A stretch of DNA of 64,000 bases from an uncultured Bacilli bacterium (GTDB lineage: Bacteria; Bacillota_I; Bacilli_A; RF39; UBA660): contig CAKOIF010000001.1 of assembly GCA_934086485.1 (NCBI GenBank), forward strand, positions 55,438-119,437, written 5' to 3'. Below, one piece after another: positions 2,908-56,803 of this stretch (position 1 is its first letter; every line of letters starts with the position of its first letter). A program made the position numbers and the translations under genes. The notes under the pieces were generated by a model. That model had not been told where the DNA came from and did no database searches. It saw only the letters and a list, made by a program, of their open reading frames with translations.

Positions 2908-2962
2908 ATTAGAAATTACTAGCAAAAAAAATTTGTGAAAATCTCACAAGCCCAGTTACTAT

Positions 2963-3127
2963 CTAGTATTAATTTTCATAAATTATATACTTTTAAGAAA
3001 AAGCATCCCTGTATTTATCTTATATCCATTATAATTTAACCATTTTTTTGAGCAATTTTCAAGCCCTTTTCCCGAAAATTGGTACCTAAGTTTTCCAAAA
3101 AGTATATAATTTGCGAAAGGACACCCC
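2963..3127. promoter_or_regulatory. putative invertible promoter switch, copy 1 (left arm 2963-3000, 91-bp core 3001-3091, right arm 3092-3127)
   Basis: The arms are imperfect inverted repeats. AAATTATATACTTTT (2980-2994) is exactly complementary to AAAAGTATATAATTT (3098-3112). The core is homologous to 9142-9232 and 14124-14214, and to the reverse complement of 44015-44107. Confidence 0.7.
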
Positions 3128-3153
3128 AGTATTTATAAGGGATGGAGAAGATT

Positions 3154-4107
3154 ATGATAAAAAATAATAATGTAAAAATAATGGGTATAATTGCAACTGT
3201 GTTATTACTCATAATAGTAATAACAGCATCATTTGCATACTTTGGTTCATTTAATGTAAATTTAAATAATAATGTAGCAGTAAATATTAATTCTACACCG
3301 GTAGGCAATGGAACATTTATATCAAATGCAACCCAGTTAAATTTACAAGTACCCGCAGCAAATATGAGTTCAACATCCTCAAATAATACTGTAGCTGCTG
3401 CATCAAATACTGCAACACTTTCAGTATCACTTACAAGTGGAAACGATGAAATAGAAACAACTTGTACATTTGATATATATTATGAATATACAGGAAGTAA
3501 TTTCTATGGTGTAAGTCCTAATACAAAAACAAGTGGAGCAAATAAAGAAATAACAATGACCGTAAATGCCCCAAGTGGAACAAGTAATTTTAGTACAGAA
3601 ACAAATTTTGATTATAATACCACTACTGGTTGGGTAACAGAAAATAATAAAAGAAAAGTTAAACTAGTGGAAAATGCAAGCATATCAAATTATGAAACAA
3701 CAGCAACAACCCAAGAATATACATTTACAGGCAAATATTATAATTTAGATATAAGTCAAGAACAACTAGCAAATAAATCATTTACAGGTATTATTTATGC
3801 AAGTAAGAAAGAATGTGTAAGTAAAGAAGCACCAATAACTTTTAGCATATCAAACTCTAGTGTAGTAACTACTTATTATGCAAAGAAGGGAATGACTTGG
3901 GAAGAATGGATTAATAGTGAGTATTATGATAGTAAGTCTAATATTACCATTGCAAAGGGCGATAGCGTAGTTATTATAACAACCACTGATACCGAAGTAT
4001 GCACAGATTTTATTGAAATAAACCATTCACAAACACAAAAATATAATGATGTAATTATTAATAAAATGGAATATAATATATCTTATTATGGTAGCTGCGT
4101 TGATTAA
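3154..4107 (+). CDS. membrane-anchored surface protein, paralog P1 (short form, distinct C-terminal domain)
   Basis: Start moved to ATG 3154 by analogy with the paralogs (GGAG RBS 7-8 nt upstream). Has an N-terminal hydrophobic anchor. Shares a ~200-aa module with P2/P3 (NATQLNLQVPAANMS, TTCTFDIYYEY, GKYYNL). Confidence 0.75.
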   Translation: MIKNNNVKIMGIIATVLLLIIVITASFAYFGSFNVNLNNNVAVNINSTPVGNGTFISNATQLNLQVPAANMSSTSSNNTVAAASNTATLSVSLTSGNDEIETTCTFDIYYEYTGSNFYGVSPNTKTSGANKEITMTVNAPSGTSNFSTETNFDYNTTTGWVTENNKRKVKLVENASISNYETTATTQEYTFTGKYYNLDISQEQLANKSFTGIIYASKKECVSKEAPITFSISNSSVVTTYYAKKGMTWEEWINSEYYDSKSNITIAKGDSVVIITTTDTEVCTDFIEINHSQTQKYNDVIINKMEYNISYYGSCVD

Positions 4108-6216: not shown

Positions 6217-6249
6217 TATATAAATTGTAATTGAATATTTTAATTATTA

Positions 6250-6367
6250 AATGTTTCAAAAAATATAGACATCTATAAATATTTTTGTTATATTTAATGT
6301 GCTCGAAAAAAATAATTTTTTTATAATGTAAAAAAATATAAAATCACACACCTTAGAAAGGAAACGT
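6250..6367 (+). promoter_or_regulatory. conserved promoter plus 5' leader module, copy 1 (TAGACA 6266-6271, 17-nt spacer, TATATT 6289-6294)
   Basis: The same module occurs at 27595-27715 and 33320-33444. Conserved TGCTCGAAAAAAATAA 5' end and AAAATCACACACCTTAGAAAGG 3' end containing the RBS. Confidence 0.65.
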
Positions 6368-7288
6368 ATGCAATTTAATAAATTATATGCTGAATCTGGT
6401 TTCATTAGAGATTTAGCATTCAAGAAATTATTTCTCGAAACTCCAGAGTTTCTTAACTTTGTTTATGAATACTGCCTACAACTTCTTAGTCTTCCTTTTG
6501 ATGATACAATTGATTTACTTGATAATAATGTAAATGATAATATAAATATTAAAAATAGAGAAACAGATTTACTTTACGAGTCAAAAAAATATTTAGTAAA
6601 TATCGAAGGAAATAGTCAAACTTCAATAAGCGTTAATTTAAAAAATTTATCTTATTTGTGTGCTTTACTTTTAAGACAAGTTAAACCTGGTGCGGAAGAT
6701 AAGATTAAAAATGTTATTCAAATAAATATTAATAATCATAGTCCGTTTAAAACAAAAAACTTTATAAATATTACAAAATTAATTGATAGCATTACTGGAA
6801 AGGTAAGAAATGGACAAATTGCAATCGTCGATTTTAATCTTGATTATTATGATGACATAGCATATAATGAAATTGATAGTTTACCTGATGCTGACCCAAG
6901 AAAAATATTTTATTTACTTACAAAGGAAAATAATGATAAATATTATGGGTTATATAAAAATAGTGTATTAGGGAAAATGTTAGTAAGGAGAATGGAAATG
7001 ATGATAGAAAATTTTGATGCAATATTTTATTATGATAAAGACAAATTTAATGAAAGGGTTGCAAAAGAAGTTGGTTTCGAAGAAGGAAAAGCAGTTGGTT
7101 TAAATGAAGGCAAAACAATTGGCTTAAATGAAGGAAGAAATGAAGGAATTGCCATTGGCTTAGACAAAGGCAAACGAGAAATAATTTTAAGAATGCTAAA
7201 CGATAATGTTCCAGATTTAGATATTATTAAATATTCTGGCGTTACTGAAAGTGAGCTAGAATATATTAAGGAAAGTATAGGTAAGTAA
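6368..7288 (+). CDS. Rpn/YhgA-like PD-(D/E)XK nuclease family putative transposase
   Basis: D...E.Q-type core (RETDLLYESKKYLVNIEGNSQ). Typical C-terminal EG-rich repeats (GFEEGKAVGLNEGKTIGLNEGRNEG) followed by an ML..G.S.E.I tail. Confidence 0.6.
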   Translation: MQFNKLYAESGFIRDLAFKKLFLETPEFLNFVYEYCLQLLSLPFDDTIDLLDNNVNDNINIKNRETDLLYESKKYLVNIEGNSQTSISVNLKNLSYLCALLLRQVKPGAEDKIKNVIQININNHSPFKTKNFINITKLIDSITGKVRNGQIAIVDFNLDYYDDIAYNEIDSLPDADPRKIFYLLTKENNDKYYGLYKNSVLGKMLVRRMEMMIENFDAIFYYDKDKFNERVAKEVGFEEGKAVGLNEGKTIGLNEGRNEGIAIGLDKGKREIILRMLNDNVPDLDIIKYSGVTESELEYIKESIGK

Positions 7289-9036: not shown

Positions 9037-9103
9037 AGATTAATTTAATAAAAAATACCAAACAAAAAAAATCAGGCAAATCTCGCACAAATCCAGTATT
9101 TTC

Positions 9104-9268
9104 CTAGTATTAGTTTTCGTAAATTATATACTTTTGAGAAAGTACATCCTCGTATTTATCTTATGTCTATTATAATTTAACCATTTTTTTGAGCAATTTT
9201 CAAGCCCTTTTATCGAAATTTGGTACCTCAATTTTCCTAAAAGTATATAATTTATGAAAGAATACCCC
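9104..9268. promoter_or_regulatory. putative invertible promoter switch, copy 2 (left arm 9104-9141, core 9142-9232, right arm 9233-9268)
   Basis: Perfectly complementary 15-mers at 9121-9135 and 9239-9253. Same architecture and orientation as copy 1. Confidence 0.7.
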
Positions 9269-9296
9269 AGTATTTATAAGGGATGGGAGAATATAT

Positions 9297-11060: not shown

Positions 11061-12917
11061 ATGTCTTTATTAATTGTAATTATAACATCTGTTATAATGG
11101 GACTACTTCCAACAGGGATAAAATATTTATCTGTAATGGCAAGCAATCTACTTCCTAAAAATTTAAAGCATAAATATCAAAATAGTAGTTTTTATTTAAA
11201 AAAGTATAGAGAAGTTTATGATATAGCTATTTCTTTGAAGTTTAGTGATAAATTCAAACTAGGCTTAATAAGTAAAAAAGTCCTTAAAAAAATGACTTCT
11301 TTAGATTTGATTGATATTGTGGATAATTTAAAATATGATGAAAATAAACTTAAATTTCTTTTGAAAAGTGAAGTTTTAAAAAACTTATTTAAAATGGATA
11401 GTAAAATAACCTTTAATGATAAAAATTTTTATGAATCACTATATAATAGTGTAAATGATGATGAAAAAATAAATCTGCTTACTCACATAAATAATGATGA
11501 ATTTGTAATAGAAAAATATGATCATTTAAAGAAAAAATTAAGTGATAAGAATAAATGTAAAATTATATGTTCATTAGAAAATGATGATAATAAGACAAAA
11601 CTTATTAATGATGTAAAAATTGAAAGTTTGACATATCAAATTCTTTGTACATATAAAAGTTTTGAAAAAGTTGAGAATTATTTATTGTCTTTAAAAGATT
11701 TATATCAATATTATTTAGTAAAACTTATGAGTGAGGAAGAAATTATAAGACTTCTTGAGAAAAATTTATTAATTAAACAAATATTAAGATGTACAAATAA
11801 TAAAGAAAGGTTTAATACTTATTTTTCATATCTTTCCTTAAAAGATCAAATAGATGTTTTAAAAATAAATCCTAATAGTGAAATGGTTTTATCAACATAT
11901 TTAAATATAAAAGATATGCTTAATGAAAAAGAAAAATTAGAAATTTTAGTAAATATTCTAAAAAATGGTGATGAGAATATTAAAAAAGAAGCATTTAATT
12001 ATTTACCAAACTCCGTAATAAAGGATATTATTTTAACAAATGAAGAAAAACATAGTGATGAGAATGTTAAATTATATAATGGTGTTTCTGATAAAGTAAC
12101 TTTTGGCGTAGAACTTGAATCATCGCATAAAGATAGTTTATTAATTAAAAAGTTAAGTACAATAAACTCTAATTGGATTTTAAAAGGAGATAGTTCAATT
12201 AAGGGAGGAGTGGAAATAGTTTCACCAATACTTCATTATGATAAAAAATCCTTAATGAATTTAAAATATGTTTGTGATTTTATGGAAGCAAATAATTTTG
12301 AGGTAACAAATGAGTGTGGTGGACATATTCATATTGGCTTTGACTTTTTTGACAATGTTAAAGAACTAGAAATGCTTTATATGATATATGGCAATGCTCA
12401 AGATATTTTCTTTGATATATGTAATCGTAAGGGTTCTATCCAAAGACCTAAATTATTAGATTATGCTAAACCTATTACGAGTAAATTATATTTAGCAATT
12501 ATTACTCATAAATTTGATGATAATATAAATTTAAATGCTTTTGTTAAAGAAATGAAAGAATTACAATCAGGTAGATTTTTTGATATAAATATATTAAATG
12601 CCCAAAGTAAATTGAAAAATACAATTGAATTTAGATTTCCAAATGGAGAAATTAATTATGAAGAAGTTTTACTTAATATTACTTTGATTATAAAACTTTG
12701 TATGGCTGCGAAAAAATATGCAAGTATAAATTGTTATGATGAAAAATATTCAGTAATTAAACTTTTACAGTGTGAGACAAATAAAGATACTAGAAAAAAC
12801 ATTTTATTTAAAATTCTTTTTGATAATGACGAGATGCTTAAAAATATTTATAATGAAAGATATGAAGCAAATAATAAAGAAGATGTTTTTGAAAGAAGAT
12901 TTGTAATTGATTTTTAA
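11061..12917 (+). CDS. amidoligase-domain protein (Amidoligase_2-like) with long helical N-terminal region, paralog A1
   Basis: C-terminal motifs FGVELES, GGVEIVSP, CGGHIHIG and IEFRFPNG. Paralog of 41630..43405. Confidence 0.6.
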   Translation: MSLLIVIITSVIMGLLPTGIKYLSVMASNLLPKNLKHKYQNSSFYLKKYREVYDIAISLKFSDKFKLGLISKKVLKKMTSLDLIDIVDNLKYDENKLKFLLKSEVLKNLFKMDSKITFNDKNFYESLYNSVNDDEKINLLTHINNDEFVIEKYDHLKKKLSDKNKCKIICSLENDDNKTKLINDVKIESLTYQILCTYKSFEKVENYLLSLKDLYQYYLVKLMSEEEIIRLLEKNLLIKQILRCTNNKERFNTYFSYLSLKDQIDVLKINPNSEMVLSTYLNIKDMLNEKEKLEILVNILKNGDENIKKEAFNYLPNSVIKDIILTNEEKHSDENVKLYNGVSDKVTFGVELESSHKDSLLIKKLSTINSNWILKGDSSIKGGVEIVSPILHYDKKSLMNLKYVCDFMEANNFEVTNECGGHIHIGFDFFDNVKELEMLYMIYGNAQDIFFDICNRKGSIQRPKLLDYAKPITSKLYLAIITHKFDDNINLNAFVKEMKELQSGRFFDINILNAQSKLKNTIEFRFPNGEINYEEVLLNITLIIKLCMAAKKYASINCYDEKYSVIKLLQCETNKDTRKNILFKILFDNDEMLKNIYNERYEANNKEDVFERRFVIDF

Positions 12918-14026: not shown

Positions 14027-14085
14027 TTTGAAAAAATTTATTAATTAAAAAAAGTTTATAAAATTCTTACAAACCCAGTATTTAC

Positions 14086-14250
14086 CTAGCATCAGTTTTC
14101 CTATATCATATACTTTTGAGAAAAATCATCCTAGTATTTATGCTATCATCAATATAATTTAATCATTTTTTTGAGTGATTTTCAAGTCCTTTTCCCGAAA
14201 ATTGGTACCTCTATTTTCCTAAAAGTATATGATTTGTGAAAATAGACCAT
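14086..14250. promoter_or_regulatory. putative invertible promoter switch, copy 3 (left arm 14086-14123, core 14124-14214, right arm 14215-14250)
   Basis: ATCATATACTTTT (14105-14117) is exactly complementary to AAAAGTATATGAT (14221-14233). The substitution relative to copies 1 and 2 is present in both arms. Confidence 0.7.
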
Positions 14251-14277
14251 AGTATTTATAAGAGATTGGAGAGGATT

Positions 14278-20549: not shown

Positions 20550-20599
20550 TTAAATATGCTAGCAGCAAATATATGTTCGATATTAGAAAAGGAGGAATT

Positions 20600-21190
20600 A
20601 TGTTATTAGAGCTTGAAAATCATTTAAACTCAAAATATCAAGATGTTACAAACTATGTTATAAAAAAATCACAAACAAGCAATAATTTTATTAAGGAAAT
20701 TAATAAATATTTAAATTACAATGTTAATAACGCTAAATTTGATAAACGTGACATTGGAAAATTAGAAAAAATGACATTGTTAAATATTCAGAACATTATC
20801 GGAGGAAGTTTTATTTTGATACATAGAGTACAAATTGAAAATGTATCTACGCCAGATGCGAAATATATAAATAAAAATATTTTTAATGGTTCAAAGTATT
20901 TTGAAATTAAATCTCCAAAGAAAAGTTTAAATGAAAACTCTAAATTAAAGAAAATATATAGGCAGTTAGATGAAGCAAAACATCAGTCAAATAATGTGAT
21001 AATATCTTTACTTAGAGATGAATGTGATTTAAGTAATGAAGAAGCCAATTTACAAATAATTAATTGCTTAAATAATATCAGATATCATTGGATTGATACT
21101 ATCATTTTAATTGGCAAAAGTAATTATATAAAAATATACAAAAAAAGAAAGAACCTTAACGGAATGCCATTGTGGTCCTTTCTTTTATAA
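20600..21190 (+). CDS. hypothetical protein with possible PD-(D/E)XK-like motif
   Basis: Start moved to ATG 20600 (AAAGGAGG RBS). Segment PDAKY...YFEIKSP resembles a D..ExK nuclease core. This is a weak call. Confidence 0.4.
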   Translation: MLLELENHLNSKYQDVTNYVIKKSQTSNNFIKEINKYLNYNVNNAKFDKRDIGKLEKMTLLNIQNIIGGSFILIHRVQIENVSTPDAKYINKNIFNGSKYFEIKSPKKSLNENSKLKKIYRQLDEAKHQSNNVIISLLRDECDLSNEEANLQIINCLNNIRYHWIDTIILIGKSNYIKIYKKRKNLNGMPLWSFLL

Positions 21191-26434: not shown

Positions 26435-27586
26435 ATGAAATTAAAAGTAGGTTTTATTTATGGGGGTATTAGTACAGAACACGAAATTAGCATAATAAGT
26501 GCACTTCAGGCGATAAATAATATGAATATAGATAAATATGACGTAGTACCTATATATTTGTCTAAAAATGGTGTTTTTTACACTGGAAAATATTTATTAA
26601 ATATTGATAACTATAAGGATTTAAGTTTAATACCTAAAAAATGCAAAGAAGTATCAATAATTAAAAAGAATAATGACTTTGCTTTATTAAGTGTTAATTT
26701 TCCTCATAAAATATTAGCTACTATTGATATTTTCTTTCCGGTTGTTCACGGCTATAATGTTGAGGATGGTTCTATCGCAGGATTTTTGGAAACTATTGGG
26801 GCTCCATATGCTGAAAGTGACTTATATGCAAGTTTAATTGGCCAAGATAAAGTAATTCAAAAAATGGTTTTCAAGGAAAATGAAATAAATGTTGTTCCAT
26901 ATACTTATTTTTATGAAAATGAATATCTTGATAATGAAGAAGAAATAATCTCTAAAATTAATGAACTTTCTTTTCCGGTAATTGTTAAACCTGCAAGACT
27001 TGGAAGTAGTGTAGGGATTAGCATTGCTGCAGATGAAGTTTCCTTAAAAGAGGCAATTAATGAAGCCTTAAAATATGATGAAAAAATAATCGTTGAAAAA
27101 GTCATTGAAAATCTAAAGGAATTAAACTGCTCTGTACTCGGAGATAAAGACTTATATAAACCCTCTTTAATCGAAGAGGTTAGTGCTAAAGAAAATATTC
27201 TTTCTTACGAAGATAAATATATTTCTGGTAGCAAGTCAAAAGGTATGGCAAGTGCAAGTAGAAAAGTTCCTGCCGATATTTCAAAGAAGTTAACCAAAGA
27301 AATAGAAAATATGAGTGTAAGAGCCTGTAAAGCCCTTAATACAAGTGGAATAGTTCGAATTGATTATTTATATGATACAAAAAATGAAAAGGTATATTTA
27401 AATGAAATTAATATTATTCCAGGATCACTATCATTTTATTTATGGAAAGATACTAAATATAAAGATTTACTAGCAAGTATTATTGAACTAGGAATTAAAA
27501 AATATAAAATTAAATCTAAAAAACAAACTAGTTTTGAAACTAATGTATTACAAAATTTTAATGGTACAAAAGGAATAAAAAAATAA
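26435..27586 (+). CDS. ddl: D-alanine--D-alanine ligase
   Basis: ATP-grasp protein (GGISTEHEISIISA, FPVVHG, EDGSIAGFLE, SSVGIS, LNEINIIPG). ATG 26435 is preferred over 26429 because of RBS spacing. Confidence 0.9.
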   Translation: MKLKVGFIYGGISTEHEISIISALQAINNMNIDKYDVVPIYLSKNGVFYTGKYLLNIDNYKDLSLIPKKCKEVSIIKKNNDFALLSVNFPHKILATIDIFFPVVHGYNVEDGSIAGFLETIGAPYAESDLYASLIGQDKVIQKMVFKENEINVVPYTYFYENEYLDNEEEIISKINELSFPVIVKPARLGSSVGISIAADEVSLKEAINEALKYDEKIIVEKVIENLKELNCSVLGDKDLYKPSLIEEVSAKENILSYEDKYISGSKSKGMASASRKVPADISKKLTKEIENMSVRACKALNTSGIVRIDYLYDTKNEKVYLNEINIIPGSLSFYLWKDTKYKDLLASIIELGIKKYKIKSKKQTSFETNVLQNFNGTKGIKK

Positions 27587-27594
27587 ATTACAAT

Positions 27595-27715
27595 TTTTCT
27601 ATAGACAATGTAACATAAATATGATATATTTAATTTGCTCGAAAAAAATAAATTTTTTTGTGAGCATTTTTTTTGCAAAAAAATTTTAAAATCACATACC
27701 TTAGAAAGGATACAT
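27595..27715 (+). promoter_or_regulatory. conserved promoter plus 5' leader module, copy 2 (TAGACA 27602-27607, 17-nt spacer, TATATT 27625-27630)
   Basis: Same -35/-10 and the same TTGCTCGAAAAAAATAA and AAAATCACATACCTTAGAAAGG blocks as at 6250-6367 and 33320-33444. Confidence 0.65.
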
Positions 27716-33281: not shown

Positions 33282-33319
33282 ATTTTTTCACCTATTTAAT
33301 TATATGATAAAAGTTTATT

Positions 33320-33444
33320 AAATGTTTCAAAAAACATAGACAATAGTAATTATTTTTGATATATTTAATTTGCTCGGAAAAAATAAGTTCTTTATATGTA
33401 ATAAAATGACTTTAAAATCACACACCTTAGAAAGGTATATAACT
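33320..33444 (+). promoter_or_regulatory. conserved promoter plus 5' leader module, copy 3 (TAGACA 33337-33342, 17-nt spacer, TATATT 33360-33365)
   Basis: Homologous to 6250-6367, including the upstream AAATGTTTCAAAAAA block. Confidence 0.65.
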
Positions 33445-34307
33445 ATGTTTAATAATCTTTACTCTAATTCAGGATTCCTACTTGATTTAGCTTTTAAAAA
33501 AATATTTCTTGAAACACCACAACTACTTAACTATGTATATAATTATACCTTAGAATTACTTGATCTACCAATAGACAATAGTATTCATTTACTTGATAAC
33601 AATGTAAATGATAATATAAATATTAAAAATAGAGAATCAGATTTACTTTATGAATCAGATAATTATTTAGTAAATATCGAAGGCAATTGTCAAACTTCAA
33701 TAAGTGTTAATTTAAAAACTTATCATATCTATGTGCTTTACTTTTAAGACAGGTAAAACCTAGTGATGCGGATAAAGTTAAAAAAGTATTGCAAATTAAT
33801 ATAAATAATAAAAGTCCGTTTAAAACAAAAAATTTTATAAATATAACTGAATTAATTGATAGTATAACTAATGAAGTAAGAAATGAACTTTTTTTTATAG
33901 TCGATTTTAATCTTGAAAATAGTTATAATATGACATATAATGAAATTGCTAGTTTACCGGGTGATGACCCAAGAAAGATATTTTATGTATTTACAAGTGA
34001 AAATAATGATAAATATTATGAGTTATATAAAAATAATAAACTAGGTCAATTAATATTAAGGAGGATGGAATATATGGTAGAAAATTTTGATGCAATATTT
34101 TATTATGATATAGATAAATTTAATGAGCAAGTAGCCAAAGAAGTTGGTTTTGAAGAAGGTAAAACTGCAGGAATGGCTATTGGTATAGACAAAGGCAAAA
34201 AAGAAATAATTTTAAATCTACTAAAAGCAGGGATGAATGAATTAGATATTATGAAGTACTTAGGTATCACTGAAAGTGATCTTGAGGAAATTACAAAGTG
34301 TAAGTAA
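33445..34307 (+). pseudogene. Rpn/YhgA-like nuclease paralog, frameshifted
   Basis: Collinear with 6368..7288 but split into two frames (33445-33747 and 33789-34307). There is a one-nt difference in an A tract (A5 at 33714-33718 versus A6 in the intact copy). Confidence 0.7.
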
Positions 34308-41629: not shown

Positions 41630-43405
41630 ATGAATATAGATGAAATAAAACTAAACTATTATTTAAGTACAAATAAAAAACATTTATATAAACTAAAACA
41701 CGATTCACATTTTTTAAAACTACTTGGGAAAAATATAGATTTTATTAATGATACAATTTTAGATAATGTTTTAAATGATATTAATGCTGTTATTGATTTT
41801 CTTCTTTATGTTAAGACAGATGAAAATAAATATAATTTTTTGCTTATTCCTAAAATAAGACAAATTTACTTTAAAAATACATATCAAGATATTTTGTTTA
41901 GTGATAATTCTTATTATGATAAACTTTATTTAAAACTTTCTGATGAAGAAAAAGATAAATTTTATATGTATATTAAAATAAGTTATCTTCCTACATTTTT
42001 AAAAAATAATTTTAATATTATTGGTAAAGAAAAAGTATTTTATATTCTTATGAACTATCAATTTGATGATAAAGTTTATGAAATGTTTTTAAGTATGTTT
42101 GAGTGTAAAATTAAGATAAAAGGTTTACTTCTTAAAATAAAAGATTATAATGTTAAATGTAAATACTTTGATATTCTTCCTATTTATGAGCAAAAAAGAT
42201 GTATACCTTATTTACCAAATAGACTAGATTACATTAATAATAAAGAATTACTTCCATATATTATTGCTGCGGAAGGTAATGAAAAATTAATATTTAAATA
42301 TTATAATGATTTATCTTATAATGATAAATTAACTGTTTTAGAAAATATAAAATATGATAATGATTTGCAAATATATTTACTTAATCACTCTGGGTTTGAT
42401 AAAAAGGAGTATCTATCTGCTTTAAGAGTTATATTGGGCATTATTCACGATCCAAAAACTATCGCGGATTTATATGAAAAAATAGATATAAATGTTGTTA
42501 AAAAAGTGCAAGGTGATTGTATGCCTAACACAAGTGATAACTTTTATATGGACTATAATATTGATAAAAAAATTAAATTTGGTGTAGAATTAGAATGCTC
42601 TAATATGTATAATGATTTGCTTTTAAAGTTTAAAAAGTTTGGAGGGTGGAATATAGTTTCTGAGGAATCAGTAAAAAATGGTATTGAATTTACTTCACCA
42701 GTTTATCATTATGATAAAGAAAGTTTGCAAAATTTAAAAGATATGTGTGCATTTTTAAATAATAATGAGTTTAATTATAGCGATGATGCAGCGGGTCATA
42801 TTCATTTTGATGTTCATATATTTAATAATGTTAAAGAGTTAATGACATTTTACAAAATATTTTGTAATGTCGAGGACATCTTATATTTGATTTTTAATAG
42901 GCCAAATTCTTTTATTCGAAATAATATTAATACTTATGCTATTCCTTTATCTAATAGATTAAATAAAAATATTGTTAACTCTTTTCATCCAAAGTTTTCT
43001 TCGATAGAGCAGTTTACTTCCTTTGTTCATTATTCTCAATATGGTAGACACTCTAGTATTAATATTAATAACGTTTATGAAAATACTAAAAATACCATTG
43101 AAATAAGAATTCCAAATATAGAAATGAATTTTGAATATTTACACGAAAATATAATGCTTATTTGTTATTTAATTATGATTTCAAAAAAGATTGCTAATGA
43201 AGATAAATATAGTAAAAATAATATTTTGGTTAATTTATTAACTGTTGATATGACTATAGAAAAAAGAAAAGATATTTTATTAAAACTTTTATTTTCAGAT
43301 AATAATTATTTACATAATATTTTTGATTATCGTTTTAAGAGAAATATTGAGGTTAATAAAGACACAACATTTATCAAGGAAAATACTTCCCATCTAACTT
43401 TTTAA
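41630..43405 (+). CDS. amidoligase-domain protein, paralog A2
   Basis: Motifs FGVELECS, NGIEFTSP, AAGHIHFD and IEIRIPN. Helical N-terminal region shares the FSDNSYYDKLY block with A1. Confidence 0.6.
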   Translation: MNIDEIKLNYYLSTNKKHLYKLKHDSHFLKLLGKNIDFINDTILDNVLNDINAVIDFLLYVKTDENKYNFLLIPKIRQIYFKNTYQDILFSDNSYYDKLYLKLSDEEKDKFYMYIKISYLPTFLKNNFNIIGKEKVFYILMNYQFDDKVYEMFLSMFECKIKIKGLLLKIKDYNVKCKYFDILPIYEQKRCIPYLPNRLDYINNKELLPYIIAAEGNEKLIFKYYNDLSYNDKLTVLENIKYDNDLQIYLLNHSGFDKKEYLSALRVILGIIHDPKTIADLYEKIDINVVKKVQGDCMPNTSDNFYMDYNIDKKIKFGVELECSNMYNDLLLKFKKFGGWNIVSEESVKNGIEFTSPVYHYDKESLQNLKDMCAFLNNNEFNYSDDAAGHIHFDVHIFNNVKELMTFYKIFCNVEDILYLIFNRPNSFIRNNINTYAIPLSNRLNKNIVNSFHPKFSSIEQFTSFVHYSQYGRHSSININNVYENTKNTIEIRIPNIEMNFEYLHENIMLICYLIMISKKIANEDKYSKNNILVNLLTVDMTIEKRKDILLKLLFSDNNYLHNIFDYRFKRNIEVNKDTTFIKENTSHLTF

Positions 43406-43746: not shown

Positions 43747-43993
43747 TATCGCATATTTTATGTAATGAATTTATAACTAATATTACTAGGAAATTTAAAA
43801 AAATTAAGTGTGAAAAATGTGGCTCAACACAATTTAATTATTCGTATAACTATAATATTAACCGACTCTGCACAAATTAGCTCTATAAAATATGGTTAAC
43901 TTCATAAAACTATTTATGGGGGTAAGGAGGAGGTCTGCCTATTAAACTAAAAAACTATAAAAATATATTAAATAATTATTAATCTAAATAATA

Positions 43994-44142
43994 TTTTTCA
44001 TTTACAGTATATAAATTTAGTACATGAATTTTATGGAAAAAGGGCTTGAAAATCACTCAAAAAAATGGTTAAATTAAAATAGATATAAGGTAAATACAAG
44101 GGTTCTCTTTCTCAAATGTTTAAGATAAGAGAAAAATGACCC
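43994..44142. promoter_or_regulatory. switch copy 4 with core in the opposite orientation (core about 44015-44107) and degenerate arms
   Basis: 44015-44107 matches the reverse complement of cores 1-3 (GGGCTTGAAAATCACTCAAAAAAATGGTTAAATT...). The downstream CCCAAGTATTTATAAGGGATTGGAG RBS block keeps the same orientation as in copies 1-3. Confidence 0.7.
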
Positions 44143-44171
44143 AAGTATTTATAAGGGATTGGAGTGATATT

Positions 44172-54855: not shown

Positions 54856-54897
54856 TAATATACAAATTATAAAATGTGAAAGGAGTTAGTTTTTTTA

Positions 54898-55005
54898 TAA
54901 TAGCGCATGGCCTATTTAGGTGACGAGGACTTACATTGTCGATTTATCAGCGGATATGTAAGCGGAGCAGTTTTACTTCGGAAAATACTTTAAAAAAATA
55001 AAATC
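54898..55005 (+). ncRNA. glmS ribozyme: glmS ribozyme (GlcN6P-dependent self-cleaving leader)
   Basis: A/GCGC cleavage-site context at 54902-54906. Conserved core GGTGACGAGGA..TGTCGATTTATCAGCGGATATG with complementary CTTACA/TGTAAG arms. Lies directly upstream of glmS. Boundaries are approximate. Confidence 0.8.
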
Positions 55006-55051
55006 AAAATTATAACAAAGAGGTATTTAATAAAACAAGAAAGGAATTTTT

Positions 55052-56803
55052 ATGTGTGGAATTGTAGGTTACAAAGGTAATCAAAATAGCATTCCTGTTT
55101 TATTAAATGGGTTAAAATCTTTAGAATATAGAGGCTATGATTCAGCAGGACTTGCTTATATAAACGGGGGTAAAATAACAATTAAAAAAGCTATAGGAAG
55201 GGTTAAAAATCTTGAGAATTTAGTTACTAACGAAGACTATGGAAATATTGGTATTGCTCATACAAGATGGGCAACTCATGGGGGAGTAACAGATAAAAAT
55301 GCTCATCCTCATAAACAAGGTAAAATAACTTTAGTACATAATGGTATTATTGAAAATTATAAAGAACTAAGTGAAAAGATTGATACAAAATTATTAAGTG
55401 AAACTGATACAGAAATATTATGTGCTTATATAAATAAGTTATATAATGAAAATCACAATATGCTTAAGACTTTAGCAAAACTTAAAAATGATATAAAGGG
55501 TAGTTATGCACTTGCAATAATTAATGAAGATGAACCAGATACTTTATATGGGGTTCGTAAAAATGTACCATTAATACTCGCTAAAAACGATAATGAATAT
55601 TTTTTAGTATCTGATATGACTGCAGCACTTAAATATACAAATAAATTTTATTTACTTGAAAATGATGAAATTGTTAAAATTTCTGATAAAGAATATATTT
55701 ATGATAGTGATCTTAATCTATTAAAGAAAGAACTTTTAACTTTTGAGGGAACAAGTAATGATGTTATGCTTAAGGGTTATCCTCATTTTATGTTAAAGGA
55801 AATTCATGAAGAACCAATGGTTATTAATAATATTTTATCTTATTATTTAACTGATGGTAAGTTTAATGAAAATATGCCTGAATTTAAAAAATATAAAAAT
55901 ATTTATTTTGTAGGATGTGGAAGTGCTAGTTATACTGCAGACATTGCTAAAAAAGTATTTGAAAATTATGCAAATATTAAATGTGAAGTATTTTTAGCAA
56001 GTGAATTTAGATATCAAAAACATTTTTATGATAAAGATACATTAGTTGTATTTATTTCACAGTCAGGAGAAACTGCGGACACTTTAGAGGCTCTTAGAAT
56101 TACTAAAAGTGATGGTATAGATACATTAGCTATTGTTAATGTAGTGGGTTCTTCGATTGCTAGGGAAGCAGGTAAAGTATTATATATTAAAGCAGGAACT
56201 GAAATAGCTGTGGCCACGACAAAAGCATTTACAGCCCAATATTTACTTCTTACACTTATTGCTCTTAAAATGGCTGGTATAAATGATTTAAGCAAGTTTT
56301 ATAAAATAAATGAAGCATTAGAAACTGTATTTGCTATAGACTTTCAAAAATATGCAGAAAAAATATATACTAAAAAAGATGCGTTCTTTATTGGTAGGGG
56401 AATAGATTATGGTTTATGTGAAGAGGGAAGTCTTAAGTTAAAGGAAATAAGTTATATAAACTCGTCTGCATTTGCTTCTGGAGAACTTAAACATGGTACT
56501 ATATCATTAATTGAAAAAGATACTCCAGTTATGGGAATAATAACTGATGATAATCTTGCTCTAAAAACAATTAGTAATATAAAAGAGGTTCATGCAAGGG
56601 GAGCATATAGTTTATTTATTACAAGTTTAGATATTGATGGTGACTTTTATGATGATAAAATTAAAGTACCTCATATAAATAATTATATTGATCCTATTTT
56701 AATTGTGGCAAGTTTGCAACTTCTTGCATATAATGTTGCTCTTTTAAAAGGCGAGGATATAGATAAACCAAGAAATTTAGCTAAAAGTGTTACTGTGGAA
56801 TAA
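55052..56803 (+). CDS. glmS: glutamine--fructose-6-phosphate aminotransferase
   Basis: Begins MCGIVGY (N-terminal Cys), has two SIS domains and ends KSVTVE. Confidence 0.95.
   Translation: MCGIVGYKGNQNSIPVLLNGLKSLEYRGYDSAGLAYINGGKITIKKAIGRVKNLENLVTNEDYGNIGIAHTRWATHGGVTDKNAHPHKQGKITLVHNGIIENYKELSEKIDTKLLSETDTEILCAYINKLYNENHNMLKTLAKLKNDIKGSYALAIINEDEPDTLYGVRKNVPLILAKNDNEYFLVSDMTAALKYTNKFYLLENDEIVKISDKEYIYDSDLNLLKKELLTFEGTSNDVMLKGYPHFMLKEIHEEPMVINNILSYYLTDGKFNENMPEFKKYKNIYFVGCGSASYTADIAKKVFENYANIKCEVFLASEFRYQKHFYDKDTLVVFISQSGETADTLEALRITKSDGIDTLAIVNVVGSSIAREAGKVLYIKAGTEIAVATTKAFTAQYLLLTLIALKMAGINDLSKFYKINEALETVFAIDFQKYAEKIYTKKDAFFIGRGIDYGLCEEGSLKLKEISYINSSAFASGELKHGTISLIEKDTPVMGIITDDNLALKTISNIKEVHARGAYSLFITSLDIDGDFYDDKIKVPHINNYIDPILIVASLQLLAYNVALLKGEDIDKPRNLAKSVTVE

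Follow-up and report, generated by a model that had tools for sequence, protein, structure and literature searches.

A family of short DNA cassettes, each of them very likely an invertible-promoter switch for phase variation, precedes the members of an expanded gene family, here called the P genes, in an uncultured lineage of AT-rich gut Bacilli. The window, i.e., the whole stretch of 64,000 nucleotides that was analysed, carries four of these modules, and the initial annotation had taken the family to be limited to these four loci. The family is much larger, since at least 38 distinct switches lie before members of the P family in related genomes. Relatives of the organism carry the labels 'Mycoplasma sp. 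CAG:472', 'uncultured Bacilli bacterium' and UBA6448. Its DNA has about 25% G+C and encodes peptidoglycan and sporulation functions, including SpoIVB, GerA, PBP and MraY.

The four P genes of the window all lie on the plus strand. P1 (3154-4107) encodes a protein of 317 aa with an N-terminal hydrophobic anchor, the same product being given by metagenome gene callers, and it is preceded by a ribosome-binding site, GGAG, at 3144-3147. P2 (9297-10970) encodes a 557-aa paralogue of P1 and P3 (50% and 51% identity), P3 (14278-16017) a protein of 579 aa, and P4 (44172-45575) a protein of 467 aa, the N-terminal part of which is unlike those of P1-P3 and the C-terminal domain of which is related to those of P2 and P3. 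The P proteins are made of an N-terminal hydrophobic helix and a beta-rich domain, and are predicted to be located at the surface. Their N-termini, as read from the translations of P1-P4, have no lipobox cysteine, and searches with Pfam and NCBIfam assigned the P proteins to no lipoprotein family. More than 6000 homologues of P2 were found, all of them unnamed. A P-protein profile search against PDB sequences gave no match; the AlphaFold2 model of P2, built from 9 sequences, has a mean pLDDT of 43.5, and a Foldseek comparison of this model with the PDB returned nothing at E <= 0.001. The N-termini of P1-P3 (3154-3260, 9297-9400 and 14278-14390; a hydrophobic helix, then SFAYFGSF) resemble SipW-type signal peptides of the TasA/camelysin kind; the only match in favour of this SipW/TasA idea, which is kept as a hint, is Peptidase_M73 at E = 0.55. 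In species-representative genomes, a protein-guided scan yielded 165 stretches and revealed ten or more P paralogues per MAG, the MAGs being labelled uncultured Bacilli, Mycoplasma sp. CAG:472 and CAG:776, MGYG-HGUT-04242, UBA6448 and Anaeroplasmataceae.

The ~165-bp module that had been placed at three positions in the initial annotation does recur there, with a pairwise identity of 78-79% over a 241-nt upstream unit (2909-3149, 9050-9290 and 14032-14272; repeat family D2), and the likeness among the units upstream of P1-P3 runs on into the 5' coding regions (family D1). Its placement just upstream of the start codons is equally correct, as the module drawn at that stage ends 27-30 nt before the ATGs at 3154, 9297, 14278 and 44172. 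Inverted repeats are present in copies 1-3, and we found again the perfect complementarity reported for their central 13-15 nt. The dimensions first given, a 91-bp core between imperfect repeats of ~30-37 bp, had to be revised: the repeats are 27-29 nt long, 83-89% complementary and 89-91 nt apart, and they are best delimited as 29-bp sites around an 89-bp core. Switches 1-3 then correspond to 2973-3119, 9114-9260 and 14096-14242, each being a 147-bp cassette in which two inverted 29-bp sites bracket a core of 89 bp. In switch 1, the left site (2973-3001, TTTTCATAAAT-TATATAC-TTTTAAGAAAA) and the right site (3091-3119) enclose a core at 3002-3090; in switch 2, the sites at 9114-9142 and 9232-9260 enclose a core at 9143-9231; and in switch 3, the sites at 14096-14124 (central CATATAC) and 14214-14242 enclose a core at 14125-14213. 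All these sites were recognized both as inverted repeats and by the signature described below. The core of switch 1 was delimited from its sequence, a promoter scan and the conservation across 39 distinct cores, those of switches 2 and 3 from their alignment, the core pattern and core conservation. The right 29-bp sites of all four copies end 35-37 nt 5' of the ATGs of P1-P4, and common to all four copies, 3' of the right site, is the stretch CCCAGTATTTATAAGGGAT-GGAG, followed by the ATG (family D6). At the ends of the upstream genes, hairpins resembling terminators, with T runs, can be read from the sequence. These terminator-like hairpins would count as insulation and would in this way support the inverton reading.

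Within the core, conservation is highest over a sigma-A-type promoter-like element, TTGAAA-N17-TG-n-TTAAAT. Switches 1-3 carry it on the minus strand, directed away from the P gene, which corresponds to an OFF state: in switch 1, the -35 box TTGAAA (3062-3057) is followed by a 17-nt spacer, then TGg and the -10 box TTAAAT (3039-3034), while the -35 and -10 boxes are found at 9203-9198 and 9180-9175 in switch 2 and at 14185-14180 and 14162-14157 in switch 3. In the fourth copy (core 44024-44106, plus strand), the element runs into P4 at 44046-44074, with TTGAAA at 44046-44051 and TTAAAT at 44069-44074, which corresponds to an ON state. As in an inverton, the core promoter faces the neighbouring gene in one orientation only. 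When 39 distinct cores from this and related genomes were aligned, the -35-like hexamer, the 17 nt and TGnTAWAAT were found at fixed positions and the remainder of the core drifts. Moreover, paralogues devoid of inverted repeats (L046, L047, L050 and L111) carry the identical promoter fixed gene-ward, ~60 nt upstream. The promoter case rests on this conservation, because a consensus promoter scan of single regions was no richer than for shuffled sequences; consensus matches and conservation together suggest that the core element has promoter activity. The core pattern CATTTTTTTGAGNNATTTTCAAGNCCTTTT matches the window four times, on strands + + + -, as against 0 expected, and both orientations are present in one genome, the fourth copy being opposed to the three others. 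The strict promoter test scored 34 of the 38 distinct switches as OFF and 4 as ON, and additional ON copies emerged with the motif rule. Of the switches of MGYG-HGUT-04242, seven were scored as OFF and one as ON, and another was unscorable.

The inversion itself can be read from natural alleles. The same loci were taken from other public assemblies via the exact look-up of flanking proteins. At the P4 locus, the promoter is directed gene-ward in L014 and L017 and in the opposite direction in L018 and L011. Between L014/L017 and L018, both flanks are 100% identical and the intervening DNA is an exact reverse complement, bounded by the perfect 21-bp repeats TTTCATAAATTATATACTTTT and AAAAGTATATAATTTATGAAA. 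A second inverted pair was obtained at a related locus from metagenome contigs scanned with the core pattern, L022 being OFF and L034 ON. The arms of the sites in this pair differ at five positions and each difference travels either with the flanks or with the core, so that the crossover is confined to ATCATATACTTTT. For P3, the ON state was found in L132 and in L021/L032; the window and nine other assemblies, with matching flanks, have this switch OFF. The SpoIVB of the L132 sample is identical to that of the window. No assembly was found in which switch 1 or switch 2 is ON. Between samples or strains, both orientations were found at three loci, with the breakpoints inside the repeats. The initial annotation had read the modules as invertons, and we checked this against the possibility that orthologous loci never differ in core orientation. 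Differing orientations were found at the P4, the P3 and the third locus, in agreement with that reading. Both orientations were seen between samples or strains only; within one population, the switches would be reversible. Contig ends located inside switch cores (L005, L009 and L026) might be taken for traces of mixed orientation; they were set aside because paralogous repeats explain them equally well.

The fourth copy differs from the others. It had been described as rearranged, and it is a related copy indeed; more precisely, the core is turned around between its flanks, since 43985-44110 aligns with cores 1-3 once it is reverse-complemented. The site signature is kept by the right site only (44107-44135, CTTTCTCAAAT-GTTTAAG-ATAAGAGAAAA), the type of which is the one that L109 has in intact form, one central position being mismatched. 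The left site (43995-44023) was located by alignment with the intact orthologues, no flanking inverted repeat being found there, and comparison of this remnant with the reverse-complemented right site gives only 14 matches over 29 positions, with 3 among the central 7 (a count made by eye on the alignment). The P4 haplotype with intact repeats was found in both states; the window-type haplotype is ON in all six assemblies, i.e., the window, L010, L012, L013, L015 and L016. Because the left site has decayed and no longer matches the right one, P4 is probably locked ON. Hence, copy 4 of this genome, which had been listed together with the working switches, is probably frozen ON. The state predicted for this genome is P1, P2 and P3 OFF, with the P4 promoter gene-ward and probably locked.

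The recombination sites carry information on the enzyme. Their signature, YTTTC-N4-A-N9-T-N4-GAAAR, occurs seven times in the window, always at the switches, as against 0.18 expected. We screened 1.24 Mb of related DNA for pairs of sites with an xTTTC start on both sides, a gap of 86-93 nt and at least 19 matches out of 29, the centre being left unconstrained, and obtained 56 pairs, 38 of which are distinct. All but two of the detected pairs lie directly 5' of an ORF with a P-type N-terminus, the two exceptions being L085, at a contig edge, and L090, with a zinc-ribbon gene. The latter switch (L090 252-398) belongs to the same family and has perfect 29/29 repeats, before the gene of a zinc-ribbon protein (MKCLECQQDN...). 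In the 38 pairs, the invariant positions are T2-4, C5, A10, A17, T20, G25 and A26-28, which form dyad arms (positions 1-11 and 19-29). Positions 12-20 differ among loci, with TATATAC, CATATAC, TAGGTAG, TATACAG and CTTATAC among the variants, and show, from first to last, 1, 1, 0, 0, 0, 0, 1, 3 and 0 within-pair mismatches out of 38. At the variable arm positions 6, 7, 9, 23 and 24, 17-21 of the 38 pairs are mismatched, approximately the expectation under independence.

A tyrosine-recombinase core site consists of two inverted binding arms and a 6-8-bp overlap region that is identical in the partner sites, whereas for serine invertases a match of the central 2 bp is sufficient. The central 9 bp, being identical within pairs and variable between loci, fit a tyrosine recombinase, and from these pair statistics we regard this enzyme class as a reasonably likely one. 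On the same grounds it is improbable that the inversion, real in itself, is carried out by a serine invertase of the Hin/Gin/Mpi type, which needs 2 central bp where 9 are kept here; furthermore, a Hin-seeded profile search of 1.24 Mb around the switches found no serine recombinase. What speaks for such an invertase is that the sites are dyad-symmetric and that it could act in trans on many loci, like Mpi in Bacteroides (PMC2268961, for global recombinases). Moreover, neither recombinase class was found nearby, which would leave room for a serine enzyme.

Three further observations concern the sites. Switches 1 and 2 (2973/3091 vs 9114/9232) have identical central regions, so that the overlap rule would allow a 6-kb inversion or deletion between them; no such event was seen in the assemblies. 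In L083 (5289-5638; the same DNA is found in L149 near 1671-2019), a signature site pair is 292 nt apart instead of 89, which suggests a longer invertible segment. Finally, a conserved motif, C(C/T)NNGTATTTA, is found beside the recombination sites, and its eight copies in the window (3007-3017, 3125-3135, 9148-9158, 9266-9276, 14074-14084, 14130-14140, 44091-44101 on the minus strand, and 44141-44151) are all in switches, as against 2.2 expected. Inversion would leave the core copy of this motif paired with the leader copy as an inverted repeat on either side of the right site. Covariation gave no support for an action of the motif as an RNA hairpin; it could serve as an accessory protein-binding site.

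We then come to the gene of the recombinase. ORF reading, Pfam scans of unknown ORFs, motif regexes and jackhmmer revealed no tyrosine or serine recombinase in the 64-kb window, and none was found in the flanks (~10 kb on its left side and 4-5 kb on its right side). Searches with jackhmmer, seeded with an Xer protein and with Hin, of the 1.24 Mb around the switches found none except one XerC-like gene, and this scarcity of recombinase genes counts against the switch reading. The product of the XerC-like gene, a 283-aa protein (PF00589, PF02899), is the sole candidate. The gene is located directly 3' of P-family genes in six sister MAGs, and also directly 5' of tig in L152 and in all contexts of P0121, P0122 and P0139. 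Between the window and the nearest MAG, tig is 98% identical, yet other genes occupy the position of the xerC-like gene in the window. A tblastn of the sister-genome xer against the window gave no match, and a 99-aa ORF upstream of tig, considered as an xer remnant, was discarded as it shows no similarity. The XerC-like family is widely conserved, with 60%-identical relatives named XerC by NCBI; the gene is a candidate only and may encode a housekeeping enzyme instead.

The P sites share with the Xer/dif core sites (B. subtilis dif and L. lactis difSL) an organization in 11 + 6-7 + 11 with dyad arms. The dif/difSL arms, TTTCCGAAAA / TTCCTAGAA, are also resembled by the P-site arms (sequences: PMC2965235, PMC5357621 and PMC3025954). 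When aligned globally to dif/difSL, the P sites fall within the top 0.1-4% of the 29-mers of the window, many unrelated 29-mers scoring higher. The resemblance, striking by eye, does not surpass the top 0.1-1% of random 29-mers of this AT-rich window; as it does not stand out from chance here, a relation of the P sites to dif or difSL is at most possible. Moreover, dif is a single-copy site for chromosome-dimer resolution, whereas the P sites are inverted pairs. The link to Xer is that the sole recombinase linked to P genes in the sister genomes is XerC-like. A more speculative scheme, which we hold to be unlikely as a whole, is that the dozen or more invertons per genome constitute a regulon served by one XerC-like recombinase, a dimer-resolution-type enzyme co-opted for phase variation, and that the locus-specific 7-9-bp crossover cores are used as address labels. 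If this were true, the labels would prevent recombination between most of the switches. The window lineage, without the XerC-like gene at its conserved position, may then carry partly frozen switches.

Another gene was considered as that of the invertase and rejected. A 306-aa ORF (6368-7288 of the window) is matched over its full length, below the threshold, by Rpn, a family of recombination-promoting nucleases (E = 0.002). This ORF is disrupted in some strains (L004 and L008) and is rarely near switches elsewhere. A degraded second Rpn-like copy, split into two ORFs, lies at 33370-34307 (~80% DNA identity; families D3, D4 and D8). An 82-nt intergenic element (family D5) is present three times, at 6244-6325, 27580-27661 and 33315-33396 (65-87% identity); it precedes the Rpn-like genes and an ORF at 27635.

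Do the inverted alleles require a dedicated enzyme at all? Rare RecA-type homologous recombination between short inverted repeats would make them evolutionary accidents and not the product of a programmed switch. Such an origin would agree with the observation of both orientations between strains or samples only, and with the invariance of switches 1 and 2 among assemblies. We nevertheless consider it very improbable. Indeed, the perfect-match stretch, 13-21 bp, is short for RecA, and inversion has occurred independently at three or more loci. In addition, the spacing of 89-91 nt and the placement before P genes are kept in 38 distinct switches. Bases of the dyad arms located outside the crossover region are also invariant among species at ~35-80% protein identity, which points to their recognition by a protein.

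Even less probable is an origin of the cassette as a miniature mobile element, ending in inverted repeats and carrying an outward promoter, that was inserted either way upstream of genes. The ~150-bp unit does have terminal inverted repeats and many copies per genome, and a solo half-cassette remains where P1 was deleted. But the conserved sequence passes both repeats and was duplicated along with the gene start (families D1, D2 and D6), and no target-site duplication is found beside the repeats in the alignments of copies 1-3 and of the P4 alleles. Furthermore, when alleles of one locus are compared, the segment is exactly inverted in place and the flanks at the junctions are identical, and the half-cassette left by the P1 deletion is the only copy away from a gene start. 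As for an action of the repeats as RNA (a leader hairpin, an attenuator or a riboswitch-like element, with orientation incidental), it is barely conceivable: the ON-state leader can form a long hairpin bracketing the right site, but its folding z-scores are only -0.5 and -1.7, its consensus fold is weak, with a compensatory change in one of 12 pairs, in right-site dyad arms that are conserved as DNA, no Rfam family matches at the switches in a whole-window scan, and the inverted alleles would stay unexplained, so this hairpin was rejected as the mechanism.

The invertible-promoter switch that we favour would work as follows. With a terminated upstream gene on one side and the 5' leader of the P gene on the other, the cassette would carry in its core a single promoter of the sigma-A type, the -10 box of which is TG-extended. 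Supplied in trans, a site-specific recombinase would exchange strands within the central regions of both sites and flip ~118 bp. In the ON state, the promoter would read across the right site into a leader of ~100 nt and then into the P gene; in the OFF state, it would read back to the upstream terminator. Each P gene would thus be toggled individually, and the population would show varying combinations of exported membrane-anchored proteins.

The initial annotation stated that no described system fits the family. This was overstated, because the arrangement of one promoter per paralogue is known from Mycoplasma penetrans mpl and from Bacteroides (PMC2268961). Both may serve as analogues, and they appear to be the closest ones: the mpl promoter inversions and the Bacteroides invertons. 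The mpl (P35) genes form a dispersed family of 38 lipoprotein genes in which several promoters invert (Horino et al. 2003, cited from PMC2268961). According to this account, mpl is, like the P system, a large paralogous family of surface proteins distributed over several chromosomal places, in which most genes have their own adjacent invertible promoter and are independently ON or OFF, and tyrosine (Xer-like) recombinases are proposed there as the invertases (PMC2268961). The same is found here, with a switch of its own before each P gene, at four loci in the window and 38 distinct ones in related genomes. This likeness is one of system description. Unlike the mpl lipoproteins, the P proteins have no lipobox cysteine and their host is walled and has sporulation genes; another difference is that no recombinase gene is close to the P genes of the window.

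In Bacteroides, many promoter invertons per genome share a common repeat motif and the recombinase is encoded elsewhere (PMC2268961; PMC11892184). The Bacteroidales invertons, with global invertases such as Mpi, are also comparable to the P switches in that they precede surface structures of gut commensals (PMC2268961 and PMC11892184). They differ by the phylum, the repeat sequences and the promoter type, and by serving polysaccharide operons, whereas the P switches serve single protein genes. Mpi is a serine recombinase. The site logic of the P switches, unlike Mpi, favours a tyrosine enzyme.

Among Firmicutes, Clostridioides difficile has, like the P system, several invertible elements upstream of surface or signalling genes, and its RecV-dependent switches (cwpV, flgB, cmrRST and pdcB) depend on one tyrosine recombinase in trans (PMC9286219). 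The P system, by comparison, is one homologous promoter cassette amplified together with one gene family. The RecV switches are sequence-unrelated to each other, and several of them act via the leader RNA and not via a movable promoter. The fimS element of Escherichia coli is, like the P switches, an invertible promoter segment for a neighbouring surface-structure gene, and it is flipped by tyrosine recombinases. However, fimS is a single 314-bp locus with 9-bp repeats, and FimB and FimE are encoded alongside it, while the P switches have 29-bp sites, an 89-bp interior, many loci and no adjacent recombinase. Full-text literature searches returned no description of invertons in this lineage, and this invertible-promoter family in a poorly known lineage is apparently undescribed.

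The P family is the most expanded gene family of the organism, its homologues are nameless, and the biology of the lineage is almost blank. Its switch-by-switch phase variation would mark the P proteins as a variable interface with the host, phage or the immune system. From a practical point of view, the site signature and both junctions are markers by which ON and OFF states can be read in existing metagenomes, and the 38 natural site pairs are a clean data set for the rules of a recombinase target. The understanding of phase variation itself is unchanged by this system, which is sizeable, well supported and unsurprising in principle.

Other observations concern the P genes and their surroundings. 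P genes have been lost in some strains (L125 12230-12600 and 17380-18070; L137, L138; L036): one deletion removed the right site and P1, leaving a solo left site and core, and another removed switch 2 and the N-terminal half of P2. In a sister species (L179 6291-9941, L174 1-6673), P-family genes adjoin parts of a diversity-generating retroelement (bAvd and an RVT_1 reverse transcriptase), and the P family may also be diversified by targeted hypermutation. In the window, two paralogous Amidoligase_2 (PF12224) genes, at 11061-12917 and 41630-43405, adjoin P2/P3 and P4, and Amidoligase_2 homologues are found near P-family genes in 8 of 79 loci of other genomes. A 205-aa ORF (20573-21190) gives a borderline match to a CdiA C-terminal toxin domain (E = 7e-6, 26.5 bits for a cut-off of 26.6). 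The sole Rfam match of the window is a glmS ribozyme (54891-55037, 56.4 bits), located upstream of glmS (55052-56803).
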